Part shown: in pieces, positions 48,375 to 61,357 of the stretch | Numbering within the stretch: the first letter of the stretch is position 1 | Layout: the number at the start of each line of letters is the position of its first letter | Assembly (NCBI GenBank): GCA_964388035.1 | Contig: CAYLZE010000008.1 | Location: 10,239-74,238, forward strand | From: an uncultured archaeon | Lineage (GTDB): Archaea > Asgardarchaeota > Lokiarchaeia > Sigyniarchaeales > SOKP01 | Length of the DNA: 64,000 nucleotides | Direction of reading: 5' to 3' | Made by a program: the position numbers and the translations under genes | Notes under the pieces: generated by a model | The model's input: the letters and a program-made list of their open reading frames with translations, nothing else | The model's database searches: none | What the model was told of the DNA's origin: nothing

Positions 48375-48740
48375 ATGAATGAAAAGATGAGTTTAAAAGA
48401 TTTATTCATATCATGGGAATCTTTTAATTCAAACATTTCAGAATCATTTAATTCATTAGATTTTTCCAGCGTGAGGGACGTGCGAAATAAACAAAGAGAA
48501 ATTGAGGATATAATTTACGCTTCCCTATTGGAAAATGCTCCTGAAGATTTAAAGCAAATTCTTCCGGAAGATTGCGGAGAAATGGAAATTGGGTATGATA
48601 TAGGCAATGAGAAATTTTACTTTTTAATGGAGGATCCTTTTTCCGATCCTGAAGAAGAGGAATTAAAAATTTTAGCAATCACTATAGATACTGACAGTAA
48701 AGTGGAGACAATAAAGGATTTTCACGTTGATGAAGATTAA
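48375..48740 (+). CDS. hypothetical acidic protein
   Basis: 121-aa ORF rich in D/E, with no recognisable motif. Confidence 0.3.
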   Translation: MNEKMSLKDLFISWESFNSNISESFNSLDFSSVRDVRNKQREIEDIIYASLLENAPEDLKQILPEDCGEMEIGYDIGNEKFYFLMEDPFSDPEEEELKILAITIDTDSKVETIKDFHVDED

Positions 48741-49476: not shown

Positions 49477-51006
49477 TCAAAATTTATCGGAATCCTCATA
49501 CCAGTCAGGAAACCACTGATAATACTCCTTGGGAAAAGCTTCTTGCAATCCTTTATAAGAAGCTTTAACTAGATCGATTTTTCCTTGTCGATCTTTATGG
49601 GTCACTACTTTCATACTTTCCTCTAAGTTTTCCACAACCTTTCTTACTGCAGACCTGCTTCCACCTATATCTTCTCTAATATCGTCCAATGTCATGTATA
49701 AGCCGGGATTTACTTTATAATCATGCGCAATTACTTTTAAAATATTTTCCTCGTTAACTTCTAAACCATTAAATTTAGAAGGCTTGCTTGATACAAGAGG
49801 AGCATTAACTTCATCATTCCATCGCAAACGGATAGGCTTTGTAAAGAAAGGTAACATTGAGGAAAACCTGTAAATAATCATCTTTTGGACTTCCGTAGTA
49901 CCCGCAACGATTTCTCCGATCTTTCCCTCTCTGACGATACGTTCCGCGGGATAAAACTTGGTTAATCCATCTCCCCCCATTACCTGAACCGCCTTGAGAC
50001 CTGCATCCCTCACATATTCACTAATCATCCATTTTGCAATGGAAGCATCAATCATGGGTTCTAGTCCATCGTCAAGTTGTTTTGCACAATTATATGAAAA
50101 AAGCCTGCCCATCCGATATTTTGCAACAATTTCAGCAATTTCATTTTGGATTCCTGGGAATTGGCTCGTGGCGCGATTAAATTGTATTCTCCTTTTGGTA
50201 TAATGAAAGAGTAATTGAATTATATCTTTCATCACACCTACATAGACCGCTCCCGCGATTAATCGCTCGAAATTAAGACCGGACATCATGACACTCCATC
50301 CTTTACCAATGGGTCCTATTCGGTTCTCATCGGGAATACGCACGTTTTCAAAACTTAAATATGCGTTAGGAACGTTATCAAATCCGACTAATGGATTAAT
50401 TCGTTCTAAAGAAAATCCGGGGGTTCCTTTTTCTACAATGAAGGACGTGATATGACCATATTCCTTTCGCGTAGCAGGATCTTCGCTCGTTTTTGCATAA
50501 ATGAAGTATCTATCAGACACTCCCCCCCCAGTAATATACCGTTTTTTACCATTTATCACCCACTCATCTCCTTCTTTTACGGCTGTTGTCATGACATTAG
50601 CCGCATCTGAACCCGCAAAAGGTTCTGTAATGCATACTGCGCCCAATTTCTTGCCACTAGCTAATTGTGGTAACCATTTTGCTTTTTGTTCCTCTGTAGC
50701 ATACCTTAATAATTGTTCTAAACCTGCTAACATGCTGACTACAAACACGTGCCCGACGGAATACAATCTTCCCAGTTGTTCTGCTACGATACAAGCTCCA
50801 GTTGCTCCTAATTCCAAGCCCCCATATTTTTTGGGAATTCCAGCTCCAAAATATCCTTTATCAGCCACCTCACGAACAATGTCCCAAGGAAATTTCCGTT
50901 TCCAGAAGTATTTTTCAGCGTCTTCAAATTTCGCCTCTACGAATTGTTCTACTTCTTTCGCAATCGCTTTTTGATCTTCATTCCACCAGAAAAAAGCTTC
51001 GCTCAT
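49477..51006 (-). CDS. acyl-CoA dehydrogenase with an extra ~130-aa C-terminal domain
   Basis: ACAD motifs: CITEPFAGSDA, KRYITGGG, GLNFERL, QVMGGDGL, GEIVAGTTEVQKMII. The protein continues about 130 aa past the usual end. Confidence 0.85.
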   Translation of the reverse strand: MSEAFFWWNEDQKAIAKEVEQFVEAKFEDAEKYFWKRKFPWDIVREVADKGYFGAGIPKKYGGLELGATGACIVAEQLGRLYSVGHVFVVSMLAGLEQLLRYATEEQKAKWLPQLASGKKLGAVCITEPFAGSDAANVMTTAVKEGDEWVINGKKRYITGGGVSDRYFIYAKTSEDPATRKEYGHITSFIVEKGTPGFSLERINPLVGFDNVPNAYLSFENVRIPDENRIGPIGKGWSVMMSGLNFERLIAGAVYVGVMKDIIQLLFHYTKRRIQFNRATSQFPGIQNEIAEIVAKYRMGRLFSYNCAKQLDDGLEPMIDASIAKWMISEYVRDAGLKAVQVMGGDGLTKFYPAERIVREGKIGEIVAGTTEVQKMIIYRFSSMLPFFTKPIRLRWNDEVNAPLVSSKPSKFNGLEVNEENILKVIAHDYKVNPGLYMTLDDIREDIGGSRSAVRKVVENLEESMKVVTHKDRQGKIDLVKASYKGLQEAFPKEYYQWFPDWYEDSDKF

Positions 51007-51738: not shown

Positions 51739-53289
51739 TTGATTGTCTATTTTTTATTATTAGTATTCAGTGCTCAACCGGCAATCGTTTATTTCTGGTT
51801 TTTTTGGCAATTGTTTCCTACTAACCTCAATCTTACCTTCTTTATCCTATTTCCATTCATATTCGTCTTAGGTATCATGATATTTATTTTAAGTTCCATT
51901 ATCGTAGCAAAAATATTTTTATTAATTGTTAATGTAATACATAAACCAAAAGAAGGCGTTTATGAAAGGACAAATCAAGATAAGGATTATTGTTATTGGA
52001 GTTTGAGAAATCTTATTAAAAAATGGCCTGCTTGGATCTGCAGGCAACTTAATCTTCCTTTATTTGAAATTATAGCATTAAAAATTTTTGGGGTTAAAAC
52101 TTCTTTTTCTAATGCCCTTCATGAGGCATGGATTGATTCAGAATTTATTCAAATGGGGAAAAATGTAAAAGTAGGCCAAGGGAGCCTTGTAACCTCAACA
52201 TTATTGGCTAAAAATAAGTTAATTCTTAAAAGAGTCATTATTGGAGATAATGTAATAACGGGAATTCACTCTACAATCTTGCCCGGAACAATAATAGACT
52301 CTAACACGATTTTAGACACGAATTCTATGACCGCAGTAAATCAGCATTTGGAAGGAAAATCCGTGTATAGAGGTATACCCGCTGAGAAAATTTCACTCCC
52401 ATCCAATCACCAACTATATCCAAGTTTAGAGCAACTTATTTTTAAAAAATCAGAAGAAGAAATAAATTTTAATCAATTACTTAGCGCAGAGGGCAAAGAA
52501 ATAAAAATACCTTTCATGTTTTACGTTTTAAGTGGGATGATAATAATTGGAGGATCTTTCATTCTACCGGGATTTTTATTCGTACTCTTTTTCTTTGGGT
52601 TTCTAATTCCTGGATTCTTAACCACCACCTTTTCTTTCAGCTCTTTTTTAGAGATTAAAACTATTTTAATATTATTTTCGACTCCATTAATTTTTGTTGG
52701 ACTTTATCTTTTGCATCTCTTTTTTATTGCCTTGATTACCAGCTGGTTTTATATTTATGCAGATAAGTATGGTGCCGTGCAAGGAGTATTTGATAGGAAT
52801 TTAGATGAAACATCGCGCGAAATAGACTATTATCACGTGCGTTCATTTCTTTTTAAATATCCTATTTTTTCCATAACTCGTTCACCTTTTCCCTGGTTAT
52901 TGAATTGGGTATTAGCTCTTTGTAGATCTAATCAAATAGGGAAAGGAACCGTATTAGAAGAAACCTTCATCCATAGTCATGTTGATTTCGAGGAAAATTG
53001 CTATTTGGGAACCATGGCCCATATGACAAACCATTTAGTAGACGGTGTATATGGGGAAGAGAACCTGACGTTTTTTGGAATTAAAGTAGGTAAAAATTCT
53101 GTACTTAATGCCCTCACGGGAGGATTACCAGGAACCGAAATTGGCCCTAATTCTACGTTATTACCGATGGCAACTACCGTGAAATACGATAAATTAGAAG
53201 GAAATGGCATTTATTCGGATTTTCCTATTAGACGAATGGATGATGAAAAAATAAAGATGCTTTTAGGAGGAATATTAGATGACAAGTGA
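51739..53289 (+). CDS. polytopic membrane protein with two left-handed beta-helix (hexapeptide-repeat) modules
   Basis: Hydrophobic helices flank two soluble modules. The first is MGKNVKVGQGSLVTS...VIIGDNVITGIHSTILPGTIIDSNTIL. The second is NCYLGTMAHMTNHLV...IKVGKNSVLNALTGGLPGTEIGPNSTL. TTG start. Confidence 0.65.
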   Translation: MIVYFLLLVFSAQPAIVYFWFFWQLFPTNLNLTFFILFPFIFVLGIMIFILSSIIVAKIFLLIVNVIHKPKEGVYERTNQDKDYCYWSLRNLIKKWPAWICRQLNLPLFEIIALKIFGVKTSFSNALHEAWIDSEFIQMGKNVKVGQGSLVTSTLLAKNKLILKRVIIGDNVITGIHSTILPGTIIDSNTILDTNSMTAVNQHLEGKSVYRGIPAEKISLPSNHQLYPSLEQLIFKKSEEEINFNQLLSAEGKEIKIPFMFYVLSGMIIIGGSFILPGFLFVLFFFGFLIPGFLTTTFSFSSFLEIKTILILFSTPLIFVGLYLLHLFFIALITSWFYIYADKYGAVQGVFDRNLDETSREIDYYHVRSFLFKYPIFSITRSPFPWLLNWVLALCRSNQIGKGTVLEETFIHSHVDFEENCYLGTMAHMTNHLVDGVYGEENLTFFGIKVGKNSVLNALTGGLPGTEIGPNSTLLPMATTVKYDKLEGNGIYSDFPIRRMDDEKIKMLLGGILDDK

Positions 53290-54166
53290 AAAAGAGAGTG
53301 CTTCTAAACCAGAACAAGATGTATTGGATTTAACTCAACTTCCAATTACAACGGGAACCTTTTACTGGACACCCACATCGACGATATTATATATCTTACT
53401 TCAATGTTTATCATTAATGATTCCCTTATCCTTGATATTGACATTTTTTACCGATGCATTATATAGTAACTTTTTCCATTGGAGGATTTTTTTTATCGTA
53501 TTTGATATTCTGGCTTGGTGGGGATCGTATCTCCTTGCCAGTATCACGATCGGGAAACTATTATTGTTTTTATTAAAATTAATTCACACCCCAAAAGAAG
53601 GAATGTTCGATATGAAAGGGAAGGACAGGGATTATCAATTTTATTGCTTACGCGTCACGGTTAAAAAGTTTATTTTCTGGATTTGGAATAATTTTTGTTT
53701 TCCATGGGTGGCGAACATGGCGTTCAAAGCATGCGATATGAGAGCAGACTTCAAATCAACCATGTTTGATGGATGGACAGACGTGGAATTTATTGAATTT
53801 GGAAATAATATGATGATAGGACAAGGAGCAGTAGTTCTTTCAAGCATGATTCTGGGAGATAAATTATTATTGAAAAAAACAATTATTGGGGACCACGTCG
53901 TATTAGGAGGAAATTGCGTTGTAGCGCCTGGGACAATCATTGGAAAAGGAACAACCTTGGGTATCTGGGCAGTTACCCATATTAACCAAATACTAGAGCC
54001 AGATTGGATATATATTGGAAGACCCGCTCGTAAATTCGTACCTACTAATACAATGATTGAAGAAAGCAAGAAGAAGTTTATAAGGAGGATTGTTGATACG
54101 GGAGAACGAATTCCGTTTGACGTTAACAAATACAAGCGAGAATTGCGCAAAAAGAGAAAAATCTAG
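53279..54166 (+). CDS. membrane protein with one hexapeptide-repeat module, paralogous to the modules of 51739..53289
   Basis: IHTPKEGMFDMKGKDRDYQFYCLRVTVKKF parallels IHKPKEGVYERTNQDKDYCYWSLRNLIKKW in the upstream gene. The hexapeptide segment is FGNNMMIGQGAVVLS...TIIGDHVVLGGNCVVAPGTIIGKGTTL. There is an 11-nt overlap with the upstream gene (ATGACAAGTGA). Confidence 0.65.
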   Translation: MTSEKESASKPEQDVLDLTQLPITTGTFYWTPTSTILYILLQCLSLMIPLSLILTFFTDALYSNFFHWRIFFIVFDILAWWGSYLLASITIGKLLLFLLKLIHTPKEGMFDMKGKDRDYQFYCLRVTVKKFIFWIWNNFCFPWVANMAFKACDMRADFKSTMFDGWTDVEFIEFGNNMMIGQGAVVLSSMILGDKLLLKKTIIGDHVVLGGNCVVAPGTIIGKGTTLGIWAVTHINQILEPDWIYIGRPARKFVPTNTMIEESKKKFIRRIVDTGERIPFDVNKYKRELRKKRKI

Positions 54167-54318: not shown

Positions 54319-55716
54319 TTAAAGACCCCTTTCTATAAGGTTAATCTTATTATTCTCCGCATCTTCTTTAGAGATCTTGTACATGAAACCGAAGATGAGT
54401 ATAGCAATTAAGATGATAATCATTGGTATTATTGACATTTGAAATTTTAATCCAAATTTAGCCAAATCGCTATTAGCAGTTCCTAAGGCGGGATCATAAC
54501 CTGTAAAGCCGGATATGATACTAAAGATAAGCGTTTGAAAGAAGTATGAAAAAGCAGTAAATACTCTCAAGATTCCATTATAACTACCTTCTTCTCGCCT
54601 TCCCGTCTTTAAAGCAGCATTATCGATGCCTTCCGCATAGAGGAGTTTATATACCACGGTAAATGTTCCACTATATGCTACGCCTATAAATGCAAATACT
54701 AATATTGTTCCCAGAAGATCAGTGAAAAATATGAAAGCACCCGCACAGGCTGCTATGATGATCAAACCTATTAAATAAGCTTTTTTTACTCCCGTCCTTT
54801 TAGCAATCCATGCCCAGATAGGGGCGAAACAGAGACTTACTATGCCTGTTACAGCGATTGGAAAAGCAGTTGCACCAATTGATAAACCTAAATTATGTAC
54901 GACAAAAAAATTTAATCCATAGGAGATGCACACTCCACCAACGGAGTATAAGAAAGATGTGAGTGTAATCGCCATCCAGTTTCTATCTCTAAAAATGCGG
55001 GATAATAAATTTTTAACAGAAGAGGAACCCTTTTTCTCACTATCTAATTCCGTTCGAAAAGTTTTCATATCAGCGGGCTCTCGGATCCCAAAACTATAAG
55101 GAACTATGAAGATAAAGACAATTATTATAATAATAAATACAGCAGTTAAATAAGCAGTGGAGCTAAGACCACCAAAGGAAGAGATGAGTGTTGGAACTAT
55201 AAGAGCCGTTGCAATTGCAACAATACCAGTTATAACCCCAAGAAGTCCAGTAAGTTTTCTTCGATCTGAAAGTTCTCTAAATAAATCAGGAAATAATAAA
55301 TCATGATTAACTTCATAGAGGGTCAAGGCGCTTTCATAAATGATCATCATGATTGCTAACCAAATAGCCGCTAATGTCATGTTATTTGTAATGGGAATAA
55401 AGCATATAATCAAAAGAATTGGGCAACTAATCACTCCAATCATTATATAGGGAAAACGCTTGCCAAATTTAGATGTGTACCTTGTTGAACGATCTGTTAA
55501 ATAACCTATTATGGGATCATTCAAACCATCTACGATGGAATAAACAAGGTAAATCACGGTAATCATTGCCTGCGGAATTAATAATACCGCGGCGGCATAA
55601 AATTGAATTTGTCACTATGTAGAGAAAATAAATCCACTAATGACTGCTTGAAATGAAAAAAATAGTATTCTTTTATTGGTAATTTTTTCAGAATATTTAG
55701 TTTTTGATTCTGTCAT
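54319..55716 (-). pseudogene. GPH/MFS-family sugar:cation symporter interrupted by tandem in-frame TAG-TGA
   Basis: The ATG at 55716 gives MTESKTKYSEKITNKRILFFSFQAVISGFIFST, then TAG (55617..55615) and TGA (55614..55612). The same frame continues QIQFYAAAVLLIPQAMITVIYLVYSIVDGLNDPIIGYLTDRS into the 415-aa ORF. It is colinear with the paralog at 59939. Confidence 0.6.
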
Positions 55717-55901
55717 CATTTCTCATTCAATTTTTTTAGTTTTATAATGAAAAGTTTTAAATGATAATATATCATTTATTAAATGATAATATTCATTTAT
55801 ATTCTATCGTATTTAAGTTTTTTTTTCTCATTCGTTTAAAATTTTTTATAACTTCAATCATTAAAGAAAAATTAAAGCACTCGGTAGGTAAATGATTTTT
55901 G

Positions 55902-59938: not shown

Positions 59939-61357
59939 ATGGAAAACGAAAATCTACAATCAACAGGACCACGAAAATTCAGTATCAAAGAGCGATTATA
60001 TTGGGGATCAGCTTCTTTCGGTGGGGCAATTATAAGTGGAATTTATGCGAGTCTCTTACCCATATTTTTTACGGACTATCTTGGACTAGTGGAATCCGCA
60101 TGGATAATTTACGTTGTGAGCTTTATCTATGCAATCTGGAATGCGATTAATGATCCCATATTTGGTATCATAAGCGATAGAACCAAGTCAAAAAAAGGAA
60201 GAAGAATCCCTTTCATGCGTTATACTGCCCCGTTCTTGGCATTGTTTTTCATATTTATTTGGTTTGCAGATCCAAGCTTCTCAGAATTCGCTCTTTTTTG
60301 GTGGATGCTGATTACGATGCTTCTTTATGATACCGCTTATACAATCATCTTTTTAGTGTTTTCAGCATTATTACCAGAAATTACCGAATCAGAGCCAGAG
60401 CGAAATGGACTACAAGTATTTAGTTCTTTTTTTAGCTTGATTGGTCAAATTCTTGGATTCGTTATTCCTGACATATTTAGACACCAAGCAAGTTTTCTTC
60501 CTCTTAGAATGTCGATGATTGCTGTAGGAATAATTGGCGCAGGATTCATCATGCTGACAACCTATAAGTTCAAAGAACGCCCCGAATTCACGACAGTCGA
60601 TCAACCATTAGGATTGTGGGACATGGTAAAGTTCACTTTTAAAAGTAAGGCGTTCATTGTTGCCGTGATTGCAAATTTCATGAGCATTCTCCTCCAGTCA
60701 TTAATACTAGGTTCGCTTTTTTATTTAGCAGATTATGTTACACAAACTTCCACGATAATTCTAATAATCTTCGTCTTTGTTCCCTTGCTTATAGGAATTT
60801 GGATCACGCCCCAGTTGATTAAGAAATGGGGAGTCGTTAAATCGGATCAACTATTACTTGTCATCGGTGGTATAGGATTGATTCTTTTAACATTCATGCC
60901 AACGAATATAACTATTTATATCTCATTGGTGATTGCTTCATTTGGATTTGTCGGGCCGCTAGTCTACACGAACCTGCTATTTGCCCAAGTGTGTGATGAA
61001 GATGAAATACGCACGGGTGTGAGAAGAGAAGCGATGTTTTTTGGTGTAAATGCCTTGATTACTAAGCCCGCTCAGAGCGTTGCTTTAGTGATCCCAGTAG
61101 CACTTTTAGCCGCCACGGGGTTCATTCCTCGAACATTAACTGGTGGAATAGCGGACCCCAGTATTCAACCTGCAGCAGCTCTATTTGCCATAAGACTCTT
61201 TATTGGATTAATTCCTGGTATTGCATTGATTTTAGAAGCCCTAATTTTATTGGCTTATCCTTTAAAGGGAGAATATTGGACAAAGATCCAAAAAGAGATT
61301 TTAATTCTTCATGATGAGAAGCATAAGAAATTACAGGAAATGATGAAAAAACAATAA
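59939..61357 (+). CDS. GPH/MFS-family glycoside:cation symporter
   Basis: 472 aa with about 12 TM helices. NDPIFGIISDRTKSKKGRRIPFM is the GPH signature region. Confidence 0.75.
   Translation: MENENLQSTGPRKFSIKERLYWGSASFGGAIISGIYASLLPIFFTDYLGLVESAWIIYVVSFIYAIWNAINDPIFGIISDRTKSKKGRRIPFMRYTAPFLALFFIFIWFADPSFSEFALFWWMLITMLLYDTAYTIIFLVFSALLPEITESEPERNGLQVFSSFFSLIGQILGFVIPDIFRHQASFLPLRMSMIAVGIIGAGFIMLTTYKFKERPEFTTVDQPLGLWDMVKFTFKSKAFIVAVIANFMSILLQSLILGSLFYLADYVTQTSTIILIIFVFVPLLIGIWITPQLIKKWGVVKSDQLLLVIGGIGLILLTFMPTNITIYISLVIASFGFVGPLVYTNLLFAQVCDEDEIRTGVRREAMFFGVNALITKPAQSVALVIPVALLAATGFIPRTLTGGIADPSIQPAAALFAIRLFIGLIPGIALILEALILLAYPLKGEYWTKIQKEILILHDEKHKKLQEMMKKQ

Follow-up and report, generated by a model that had tools for sequence, protein, structure and literature searches.

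In a 64-kb window from an uncultured Asgard archaeon (64,000 nucleotides of contig CAYLZE010000008.1, assembly GCA_964388035.1; the window is this whole stretch, and its G+C content is 33%), we found two overlapping genes on the forward strand, here called A and B, that appear to encode the two subunits of one membrane enzyme. Gene A (51739..53289, +) starts with TTG and encodes a protein of 516 amino acids (aa) with two modules, A1 and A2, and gene B (53279..54166, +) starts with ATG and encodes a protein of 295 aa with one module. In each of the three modules, a transmembrane (TM) hairpin is followed by a P-x-EG-x-F strand, a pair of helices and a left-handed beta-helix (LbH). The explanation that we favor, at a probability of about 0.6, is that A and B form a ring-shaped, cytoplasm-facing acyltransferase with a single active site, and that this enzyme is a distant, carrier-less relative of the Pls-type homopoly-amino-acid synthetases. 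The first-pass annotation of this stretch had listed a two-module protein of 516 aa and a one-module protein of 295 aa with an overlap of 11 nt, and both open reading frames (ORFs) and the overlap are present in that form. It had also proposed that the pair is a stand-alone, split version of the Pls-type polymerase or acyltransferase machine. The architecture and a homology through intermediate proteins support that proposal; the family score and the confinement of direct similarity to the LbH speak against it, and nothing we found speaks for polymerase activity.

To compare the modules with each other, we used BLASTP. A1 (aa 1-250) and B share 34% identity over 234 aa (E 2e-40), A2 (aa 251-516) and B share 25% identity (E 3e-8), and A1 and A2 share 23% identity (E 3e-7). 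Because these pairwise matches lie far beyond chance, the triplication is real and A2 is the divergent copy. Hydropathy shows two hydrophobic helices ahead of every juxtamembrane motif, so that the earlier description of three modules of the same design is supported both by paralogy and by the hairpins, and the three juxtamembrane motifs quoted there were all found verbatim. Hydropathy, the repeats and AlphaFold2 (AF2) models together give six predicted TM helices that form three pairs, interleaved with three LbH domains and spread over two polypeptides (2 + 1). When we searched Pfam and NCBIfam, Hexapep/LbH was the sole domain type in A and B, and Pfam Hexapep (PF00132) scored above its gathering score of 27 in both proteins (41.8 bits in A and 28.4 bits in B). 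The best Hexapep stretch of A lies in A1 (aa 166-192), and Pfam gave no hexapeptide evidence for A2. The assignment of A2 as an LbH domain draws on profile matches (95% to bacterial LbH modules and 96.5% to LacA) and on the AF2 model. The hexapeptide beta-helix that the first-pass annotation saw after each motif thus has Pfam support in A1 and B, and in A2 the support comes from profiles and modeling.

To locate the active site, we aligned the modules by hhalign to E. coli LacA, whose general base we take to be His115, in TGH(115)PVHHELRKNG. A1 aligns to LacA (96.4%) with a 13-aa gap that falls exactly at LacA 111-123 and includes His115. B aligns without gaps to A1 across the region of the missing catalytic loop and has equal length there. 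In contrast, the A2 loop is LacA-like in length and position; a profile built from 83 diverse A2-type sequences aligns with LacA (96.5%, E 8e-10), and His432 of A (codon CAT at 53032..53034, +, in the motif T-N-H-L-V-D-G) falls on LacA His115 in the maximum-accuracy (MAC) alignment. This candidate general base is conserved in 77 of the 83 diverse A2-type modules. Three other histidines of A2 (H412, H414 and H428) are invariant within the orthologue group only, and H414 lies exactly 18 residues, or one coil, before H432. A C-terminal G-x-P-A-[KR] segment, which is typical of coenzyme A (CoA)-dependent LbH transferases, is kept and aligned to LacA and AntD. We found the same asymmetry in relatives of the pair: bacterial stand-alone three-module proteins have an invariant His in their second module (m2) only, and Pls sequences (n=3) have a His in the catalytic-loop region in the third soluble domain, C3, only. 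These alignments indicate that only A2 retains a LacA-type catalytic loop and that the loop is deleted in A1 and B.

All the closest homologues of A and B belong to Asgard archaea (Promethearchaeota/Lokiarchaeota, Hod-, Hermod-, Thor- and Odinarchaeota). Among the homologues listed, identity is 58-80% for B and 51-71% for A; B orthologues across Loki-, Hod-, Hermod-, Thor- and Odin-type archaea are 56-80% identical, and about 60% identity of the pair is kept across Asgard phyla. An orthologue of B is found in 54 GTDB species genomes when we searched with single-sequence patterns and in 84 with profile patterns, all of them Asgard. In all Asgard loci examined, A orthologues are about 500-540 aa long and A lies directly upstream of B; in Promethearchaeota we also found single-chain A1-A2-B fusions, P0123 (797 aa, identical in two assemblies) and P0275 (808 aa). 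A second paralogous system is present in 72 loci, often in genomes that also hold the first, and consists of one to three two-module genes, each of an A2-type and a B-type module, followed by a single-module gene of A1 type. In some of these loci two or three alternative A2-type genes precede two A1-type genes. In many of the 72 loci there is also a third set, made up of three single-module genes in a row; their order is always A2, B, A1, and a CN-hydrolase gene usually lies downstream of them. Across the 72 loci and the window there are four layouts (three separate genes A2, B and A1; a joined A2+B followed by A1; a joined A1+A2 followed by B; and all three fused), and none of the four departs from the cyclic order A2→B→A1 or from the rule of one His-motif module per set. 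Because both features are conserved, we read the sets as a closed three-membered ring with fixed neighbors and a single active site.

To predict the structure of the modules, we ran AF2 on the natural fusion P0275 with a multiple sequence alignment (MSA) of A homologues only, so that the B module was modeled without MSA depth. Mixed MSAs of A and B homologues were discarded since MAFFT stacked A1 modules onto the B module. The model has a mean predicted local distance difference test score (pLDDT) of 75, with values above 90 in modules 1 and 2 and of 65-85 in the B module. In every module we see a TM hairpin, a short strand (P-x-EG-x-F), two helices of about 20 and about 10 residues, in this order, and an LbH. 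A published AlphaFold model of PosA also has a beta-strand and two helices between hairpin and LbH, and its three LbH domains are packed like the trimers of sugar-nucleotide acyltransferases; as of that 2023 paper, the Pls-type polymerization domain had no experimental structure (PMC10522769). The predicted anatomy of the A and B modules agrees with this published model. When B was modeled alone with a deep MSA, the hairpin, strand and helices were confident and the LbH had pLDDT below 50. Because this domain reaches 65-85 in the fusion, the models lend soft support to the view that the LbH of B may need partners. When we searched the PDB (to April 2026) with Foldseek, only soluble LbH enzymes were returned, with maltose and galactoside O-acetyltransferases as best matches (about 187/189 residues, structural-alignment score TMt 0.56-0.58), and neither sequence nor Foldseek searches of the PDB found a Pls-like membrane structure; by sequence, the pair matches AntD, Maa and LacA. 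The hairpin loops hold 0-1 K/R, and the 30 residues that follow the three hairpins hold 7, 4 and 7 K/R. By the positive-inside rule, the LbH ring would face the cytoplasm, where CoA thioesters are available.

To place the pair with respect to Pls and PosA, we used TIGR02353, which the first-pass annotation had named as the model of the Pls-type terminal region and which does represent the Pls/PosA terminal domain in NCBIfam (695 positions, cutoff 423.1 bits). A scores 31.6 bits (E 6e-8) and B 28.6 bits (E 4e-7), each over one LbH only (profile positions 108-232), and for both proteins TIGR02353 is the second-best NCBIfam match behind the equally weak NF058585. The similarity to the hidden Markov model, whose absence would have counted against the first-pass proposal, is therefore present at significant E-values. 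However, with 32 and 29 bits where the cutoff is 423, the pair falls outside the Pls/PosA family. Our Pls/PosA reference proteins (P0418, P0415 and P0417) score 638-750 bits. As called, these references (873-956 aa) begin with one or two thiolation domains and have no adenylation domain, and they may be truncated gene calls or variants that lack adenylation domains.

When we searched 1.8 billion representatives exhaustively with A, we obtained 565 relatives, and among them were bacterial single-chain three-module proteins without adenylation or thiolation domains (P0194 and P0251, as well as P0232, which has an N-terminal short-chain dehydrogenase/reductase (SDR) domain). TIGR02353 is the top match of these bacterial proteins, at 168-184 bits in three stretches (the stand-alone proteins as a class score 157-184 bits), and it is also the top match of the Asgard paralogues P0125, P0137, P0140 and P0186, in alignments that take in TM parts. 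In profile-profile comparisons by hhalign, the bacterial stand-alone proteins match Pls at 99.8% (E 2e-30) over 587 collinear columns, and Asgard A matches the bacterial stand-alone proteins at 99.5% (E 4e-22) over two whole modules. At the level of single modules, A1 matches m1, m2 and m3 of the bacterial proteins at 99.1-99.4% (E down to 2e-21) from TM2 to the end, and m1 and m3 match Pls C3 at 99.0-99.2% (E down to 2e-19) with the TM hairpin included. The direct comparisons of A1 with C1 (94.3%), A1 with C3 (95.4%) and B with C1 (94.1%), all at E of about 1e-7, cover the LbH with or without a helix, and hardly any of the direct Asgard-Pls similarity (about 91-95%) lies outside the LbH. The segments before the LbH, when compared alone, have no significant match to Pls (E 0.1-0.2); compared to the bacterial stand-alone proteins, only that of A1 matches, weakly and in register in all three modules (best E 8e-5). 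There is no one-to-one correspondence between Asgard and Pls modules, and A1 is equally like m1, m2 and m3. Taken together, these comparisons place the modules with a TM hairpin and an LbH in one superfamily, of which the Asgard proteins are a distant branch. What links A/B directly to Pls in sequence is the LbH, together with the architecture and the intermediates, and this shows homology at the level of the superfamily and not family membership. We therefore describe the pair as a split, carrier-less and Asgard-specific branch of a superfamily with three such modules, whose only characterized members are the Pls/PosA synthetases. Our literature searches found no account of Pls-terminal-domain relatives without adenylation and thiolation domains, nor of this Asgard family, and the database names of A and B homologues are generic ("acyltransferase", "DapH/DapD/GlmU-related" or "hypothetical").

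In the mechanism that we favor, A and B would be two subunits of one membrane-embedded enzyme in which the LbH domains of A1, A2 and B pack into a pseudo-trimer at the cytoplasmic face, anchored by a bundle of six TM helices to which each module contributes one hairpin. This pseudo-trimer would mimic the obligate homotrimer of soluble hexapeptide acyltransferases, with the difference that its three subunits are not equivalent. His432 of A2 would act as the general base, the loop-less A1 and B would be structural and substrate-binding partners, and the sole active site would lie at one cleft between helices. LbH acyltransferases generally use pantetheine thioesters, either of CoA or of acyl carrier protein. 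The donor of the pair would most plausibly be acyl-CoA, with its pantetheine arm bound as in LacA, Maa or LpxA, and an acceptor hydroxyl or amine, positioned close to the membrane surface or within the TM bundle, would attack the acyl thioester. The reaction would most likely be one acyl transfer and not polymerization. In Pls-type enzymes, a thiolation-domain-bound aminoacyl thioester is the donor and C1-C3 forms the amide bonds, for which all three domains are needed (PMC4668381, PMC7179176). Near the pair, we found no adenylation or thiolation domain, as the first-pass annotation had stated for the adjacent genes, and no adenylation or thiolation domain, phosphopantetheinyl transferase (PPTase) or ATP-grasp gene is linked in 58 loci of the pair and the 72 loci of the second system. 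The whole window holds no carrier (thiolation) domain, and its sole ANL ORF is 46 kb distant. Given the LacA-like catalytic loop and the lack of any linked carrier or adenylating partner, an acyl-CoA-dependent, single-site acyltransferase with a membrane-proximal acceptor is the most economical explanation. Ring assembly, cytoplasmic orientation, a thioester donor and a single turnover are what we infer for it.

In gene A, the TM hairpin of A1 (aa 1-66; 51739..51936, +) is defined by hydropathy and has the loop QLFPTNLN, without K/R; in the fusion modeled by AF2, which lacks TM1, its second helix is likewise helical. It is followed by the juxtamembrane motif IHKPKEGVYERTNQDKDYCYWSLRNLIKKW (aa 67-96; 51937..52026, +; 7 K/R), a short beta-strand and the start of helix 1, where AF2 places a strand at EG-x-F and then two helices. 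The LbH of A1 (about aa 131-220; 52129..52398, +) has WIDSEF at 131-136, GQG at 146-148 and the Pfam match at aa 166-192, and it is of the non-catalytic type according to the hhalign alignment to LacA. The A2 hairpin (aa 257-341; 52507..52761, +) is seen by hydropathy and as two long helices at the equivalent position of the AF2 model, with pLDDT of about 90. The A2 juxtamembrane motif and helices span aa 345-386 (from GAVQGVFDRNLDETSREIDYYHVRSFLFKY to RSPFPW; 52771..52896, +), and DRNLDE, YYH.RSFL.KYP and RSPFPW within this segment are among the most conserved stretches of the family. The catalytic-type LbH of A2 (about aa 405-505; 52951..53253, +) matches bacterial LbH modules at 95% by hhalign and has beta-strands of pLDDT 85-95 in the AF2 model. 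In gene B, the hairpin (aa 33-100; 53375..53578, +) is seen by hydropathy and as helices 32-53 and 66-102 in the model of B alone (pLDDT 75-92), and the juxtamembrane motif IHTPKEGMFDMKGKDRDYQFYCLRVTVKKF (aa 102-131; 53582..53671, +) lies where the model has a strand (108-111) and then helices 117-139 and 142-151. The LbH of B (about aa 166-252; 53774..54034, +), with WTDVEF at 166-171, GQG at 181-183 and a Pfam Hexapep match at aa 201-228, is of the non-catalytic type and can be aligned to LacA only from aa 201. B ends in a basic C-terminal tail (aa 255-295; 54041..54163, +) with 14 K/R and a conserved RR.VDTGE.IPFD.

The region where the two genes meet (53265..53289, +) has a Shine-Dalgarno-like AGGAGG at 53265-53270, within the 3' end of A and 8 nt before the B ATG at 53279, and the A stop codon at 53287-53289, so that the genes overlap by the 11 nt ATGACAAGTGA. 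The overlap is kept across loci: an identical 11-nt overlap (ATGnnnAAT[GA]A) is present in 18 other loci, overlaps of 8, 14, 17 or 20 nt are present in others, and 11 nt is the modal value. The overlap, the internal Shine-Dalgarno motif and the conservation of the overlap suggest that A and B are translationally coupled, and the coupling claimed by the first-pass annotation has this support. The first 46 or so residues of A, which form TM1, are conserved among homologues. The public call for A (P0269, 470 aa) begins at an internal Met and omits TM1 (51739-51876), and several NCBI calls for A orthologues (450-458 aa) are N-terminally shortened in the same way. Because the N-terminus of A is conserved, we take the TTG at 51739, or a codon very close to it, as the true start and P0269 as truncated.

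In Asgard genomes, the pair lies within a conserved block of genes of mixed orientation. Before A and B there are genes for a CPBP protease, a GNAT protein, a nitroreductase, an acidic protein of 118 aa and, in part of the loci, an acyl-CoA dehydrogenase; after them there are an MFS_2 gene or others and then genes for a GpmA-type mutase, a rhodanese, an alpha/beta-hydrolase, a RING-finger protein and a DUF998 protein. This conserved block has no nonribosomal peptide synthetase adenylation or thiolation domain, no ATP-grasp enzyme and no glycan-synthesis gene. The acidic protein (121 aa in the window, 48375-48740, +) is the commonest conserved same-strand upstream neighbor (37-39 of 58 loci); we considered the acidic 118-121-aa neighbor as a carrier protein and rejected it, as it has no Pfam match and no obvious carrier motif. 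The acyl-CoA dehydrogenase gene (509 aa; 49477-51006, -) is divergent from A, occupies this position in 27 of 58 loci and encodes a C-terminal extension of about 125 aa without a Pfam match. Next to the pair there is an MFS_2 gene, both here and in 24 of 58 loci. The window copy (54319-55719, -), which is convergent with B, is interrupted: it begins with ATG at 55719, has in-frame TAG TGA codons at about 55617-55612, and resumes its frame in a 415-aa ORF (54319..55566), and its homologues have about 467 aa. It is likely a pseudogene or a sequencing error, and an intact MFS_2 paralogue (472 aa) is present at 59939..61357 (+).

Among bacterial relatives, a Planctomycetales three-module protein (690 aa) is the first in an apparent operon (locus L059, 8971-17407) with genes for a GT1 glycosyltransferase (EryCIII-like), a GMC oxidoreductase, an SDR, RmlA, an RmlD-like protein and RmlB, and one Omnitrophota stand-alone copy lies downstream of MFS_2, sugar ATP-binding cassette (ABC) transporter and GH2 genes. 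The first-pass annotation had named linkage to polysaccharide O-acetylation genes as the mark of ordinary membrane-anchored sugar acyltransferases. In our comparison the bacterial relatives lie beside sugar-modifying genes, which speaks in part for that reading, although the Asgard loci have no glycan-gene link. In the second system, a glucose-dehydrogenase-like zinc-dependent alcohol dehydrogenase (Zn-ADH) gene lies directly upstream in 58 of the 72 loci, and a gene for a CxxCxxCC protein lies on the opposite strand in 66 of the 72. The GT1/Rml operon, the SDR fusion of P0232, the Omnitrophota GH2 locus, the Zn-ADH of the second system and the MFS_2 adjacency together hint, by analogy, that a sugar, polyol or glycolipid may be favored as acceptor over an amino-acid polymer.

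We made several side observations at the loci of the further paralogous sets (L057 and L175-L246, for example L178 438-14130). A heliorhodopsin gene (Pfam E 1e-95) lies a few genes upstream of the second system at L187 (6077-6901, -) and in 20 other loci. Near the second system at L196 (4182-5822, -) and in 28 other loci there is a gene for a 546-aa protein with "FCHTSGTT", which is suggestive of an ANL P-loop. As a candidate for donor supply, this protein (cluster c7) was rejected; it has no Pfam or PDB match, and its likeness to ANL is tentative. At L057 (7498-8856, +; 12212-15043, -), an ADP-forming acyl-CoA synthetase alpha-type gene lies amid the cluster and a gene for an AMP-binding ligase (609 aa), with a partial copy, flanks it; these were rejected as partners since they do not recur in the other 71 loci. 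Locus L232, labeled "Candidatus Nanopelagicaceae bacterium" (an actinobacterial metagenome-assembled genome), has an Asgard-type five-gene set at 54% identity and is probably a mis-binned Asgard contig.

Several points weigh against the single-site ring. The predicted TM score (pTM) of the fused model is only 0.60; the pairing of H432 with LacA His115 is seen only in the permissive MAC alignment, and a stricter alignment shifts the gap; the Asgard neighborhood of the pair gives no pointer to donor or acceptor; and some paralogous loci have five or seven modules (for example 2+2+1), for which alternative catalytic subunits that share partners must be assumed. Polymerization also keeps some probability because the pair is homologous to a known iterative polymerase. 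If A and B were a Pls-type iterative polymerase, the monomer would come from a carrier protein, CoA or tRNA encoded elsewhere, and the chain would exit through the six-helix bundle as an Asgard homopolymer. The three modules with hairpin, strand, two helices and LbH are like those of the Pls/PosA polymerization domain, the chain of profile matches to genuine Pls is strong (99.5% and 99.8%), the Pls triad likewise has one His-bearing module (C3), and about 60% identity across Asgard phyla would suit a dedicated machine. We nevertheless consider this unlikely, as the TIGR02353 scores are 32 and 29 bits compared to the cutoff of 423, the parts before the LbH alone have no match to Pls, and the A2 catalytic loop has the length and position of that in LacA. 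Moreover, the 58 and 72 loci have no linked adenylation or thiolation domain, PPTase or ATP-grasp gene, the 64-kb window has no thiolation domain, and the bacterial stand-alone relatives lie beside glycosyltransferase, Rml and dehydrogenase genes and not beside genes for monomer supply.

At the other extreme, A and B could be independent membrane-tethered hexapeptide acetyltransferases that each form homotrimers and acetylate a sugar, either a surface glycan precursor or an imported glycoside (as for LacA beside LacY), and the likeness to Pls would then be that of a shared LbH fold only. The top single-family matches are generic LbH acyltransferases (NF058585, WcaF, WbbJ and NeuD), the PDB matches are AntD, Maa and LacA, the direct Asgard-Pls similarity is LbH-confined, genes for a glycoside-type (MFS_2) transporter adjoin the pair here and in 24 of 58 loci, and bacterial relatives lie near GT1/Rml and MFS_2/GH2 genes. 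However, A1 and B have no catalytic loop, so that B alone would have no LacA-type base, and A holds two LbH domains, for which a symmetric three-helix homotrimer is impossible. A and B always overlap and are fused in some lineages, A1 has whole-module homology (TM2 and helices) to the bacterial three-module proteins at 99%, and Asgard neighborhoods have no glycan-synthesis genes. The cyclic order and the single catalytic module of each set persist in four layouts; separate homotrimers of A and B would hardly explain this, and we hold them to be quite improbable. More improbable still is a metal-dependent or scaffolding LbH assembly like the gamma-carbonic-anhydrase (gamma-CA) heterotrimer on the membrane arm of plant and protist complex I, in which H412, H414, H428 and H432 would bind a metal. 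Four invariant A2 histidines on two adjacent coils in the orthologue group of the window, with H414 and H432 exactly 18 residues apart, would fit such a site, and gamma-CA and the complex I CA and CA-like (CAL) chains are among the weak PDB matches. Yet the gamma-CA model NF050158 scores 12-17 bits compared to a cutoff of 250 (E 0.15 in A, E 0.0036 in B), three of the four histidines are not conserved in the wider A2-type family and H432 alone is (77/83), the G-x-P-A-[KR] segment is kept and aligned to LacA and AntD, and the best fold matches are acetyltransferases. A single-site acyltransferase ring thus remains our preferred reading.

As a small, naturally split relative without adenylation or thiolation domains and with an evident single catalytic module, the pair is a tractable structural and mechanistic model for Pls polymerization. 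With the pair, the archaeal lineage closest to eukaryotes also has a conserved, uncharacterized membrane function, with at least two further paralogous sets per genome. The rule that we found for the gene sets (one His-bearing and two loop-deleted modules, in a cyclic order that is kept through fission and fusion) probably extends to Pls, where the His is in C3 only. A bolder proposal, which we regard as doubtful, is that Asgard archaea in general have multi-paralogue LbH rings of one catalytic and two scaffold modules, siblings of the Pls domain, in which thioester chemistry in the cytoplasm is linked to transit of the product through the six helices of the ring itself. Such rings would either polymerize an activated monomer supplied in trans into a novel Asgard polymer or acylate and export a lipid or glycan, with interchangeable A2-type subunits that set the specificity. 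If it were true, the archaea most closely related to eukaryotes would have a new kind of machine for acyl transfer and export, and this would be a minimal model of Pls polymerization that is free of adenylation and thiolation domains.

Compared to the Pls/PosA synthetases (for epsilon-poly-L-lysine, delta-poly-L-ornithine and poly-DAP), the pair shares three tandem modules of TM hairpin and LbH, a predicted strand and two helices between hairpin and LbH, and one His-bearing module of three. In contrast to these synthetases, which are bacterial or fungal, the pair is archaeal and Asgard-only, has no adenylation or thiolation domain in the polypeptide or nearby, and is split over two overlapping genes; its His-bearing module is the middle one (A2) instead of C3, and its sequence before the LbH has no detectable similarity to theirs. 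The bacterial stand-alone proteins (about 680-690 aa; Planctomycetales, Omnitrophota and Elusimicrobia) share with the pair the lack of adenylation and thiolation domains, the three modules of TM hairpin and LbH, and the His in the middle module; however, they are single polypeptides, are much closer to Pls and have modules that are more evenly alike. In LacA and Maa, nearly the whole chain superposes on the modeled soluble part of one module (about 187 columns, TMt 0.56-0.58), the A2 catalytic loop and the C-terminal G-x-P-A-[KR] segment are shared, and by analogy an acyl-CoA thioester is the expected donor. The pair is about 15-20% identical to them in sequence. Both enzymes are soluble and homotrimeric, and their three active sites are identical, whereas the pair has three unlike, TM-anchored modules, two of which are loop-less. 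The top NCBIfam match of both proteins is NF058585, the YvoF-type heptaprenylglyceryl phosphate O-acetyltransferase (40.8 bits for A and 34.3 bits for B, cutoff 300); the match covers about 100 LbH residues only, and the enzyme lacks the TM hairpins and the three-module design. It acts on an archaeal-type membrane lipid, which makes such lipids a thematically attractive class of acceptor for the pair.

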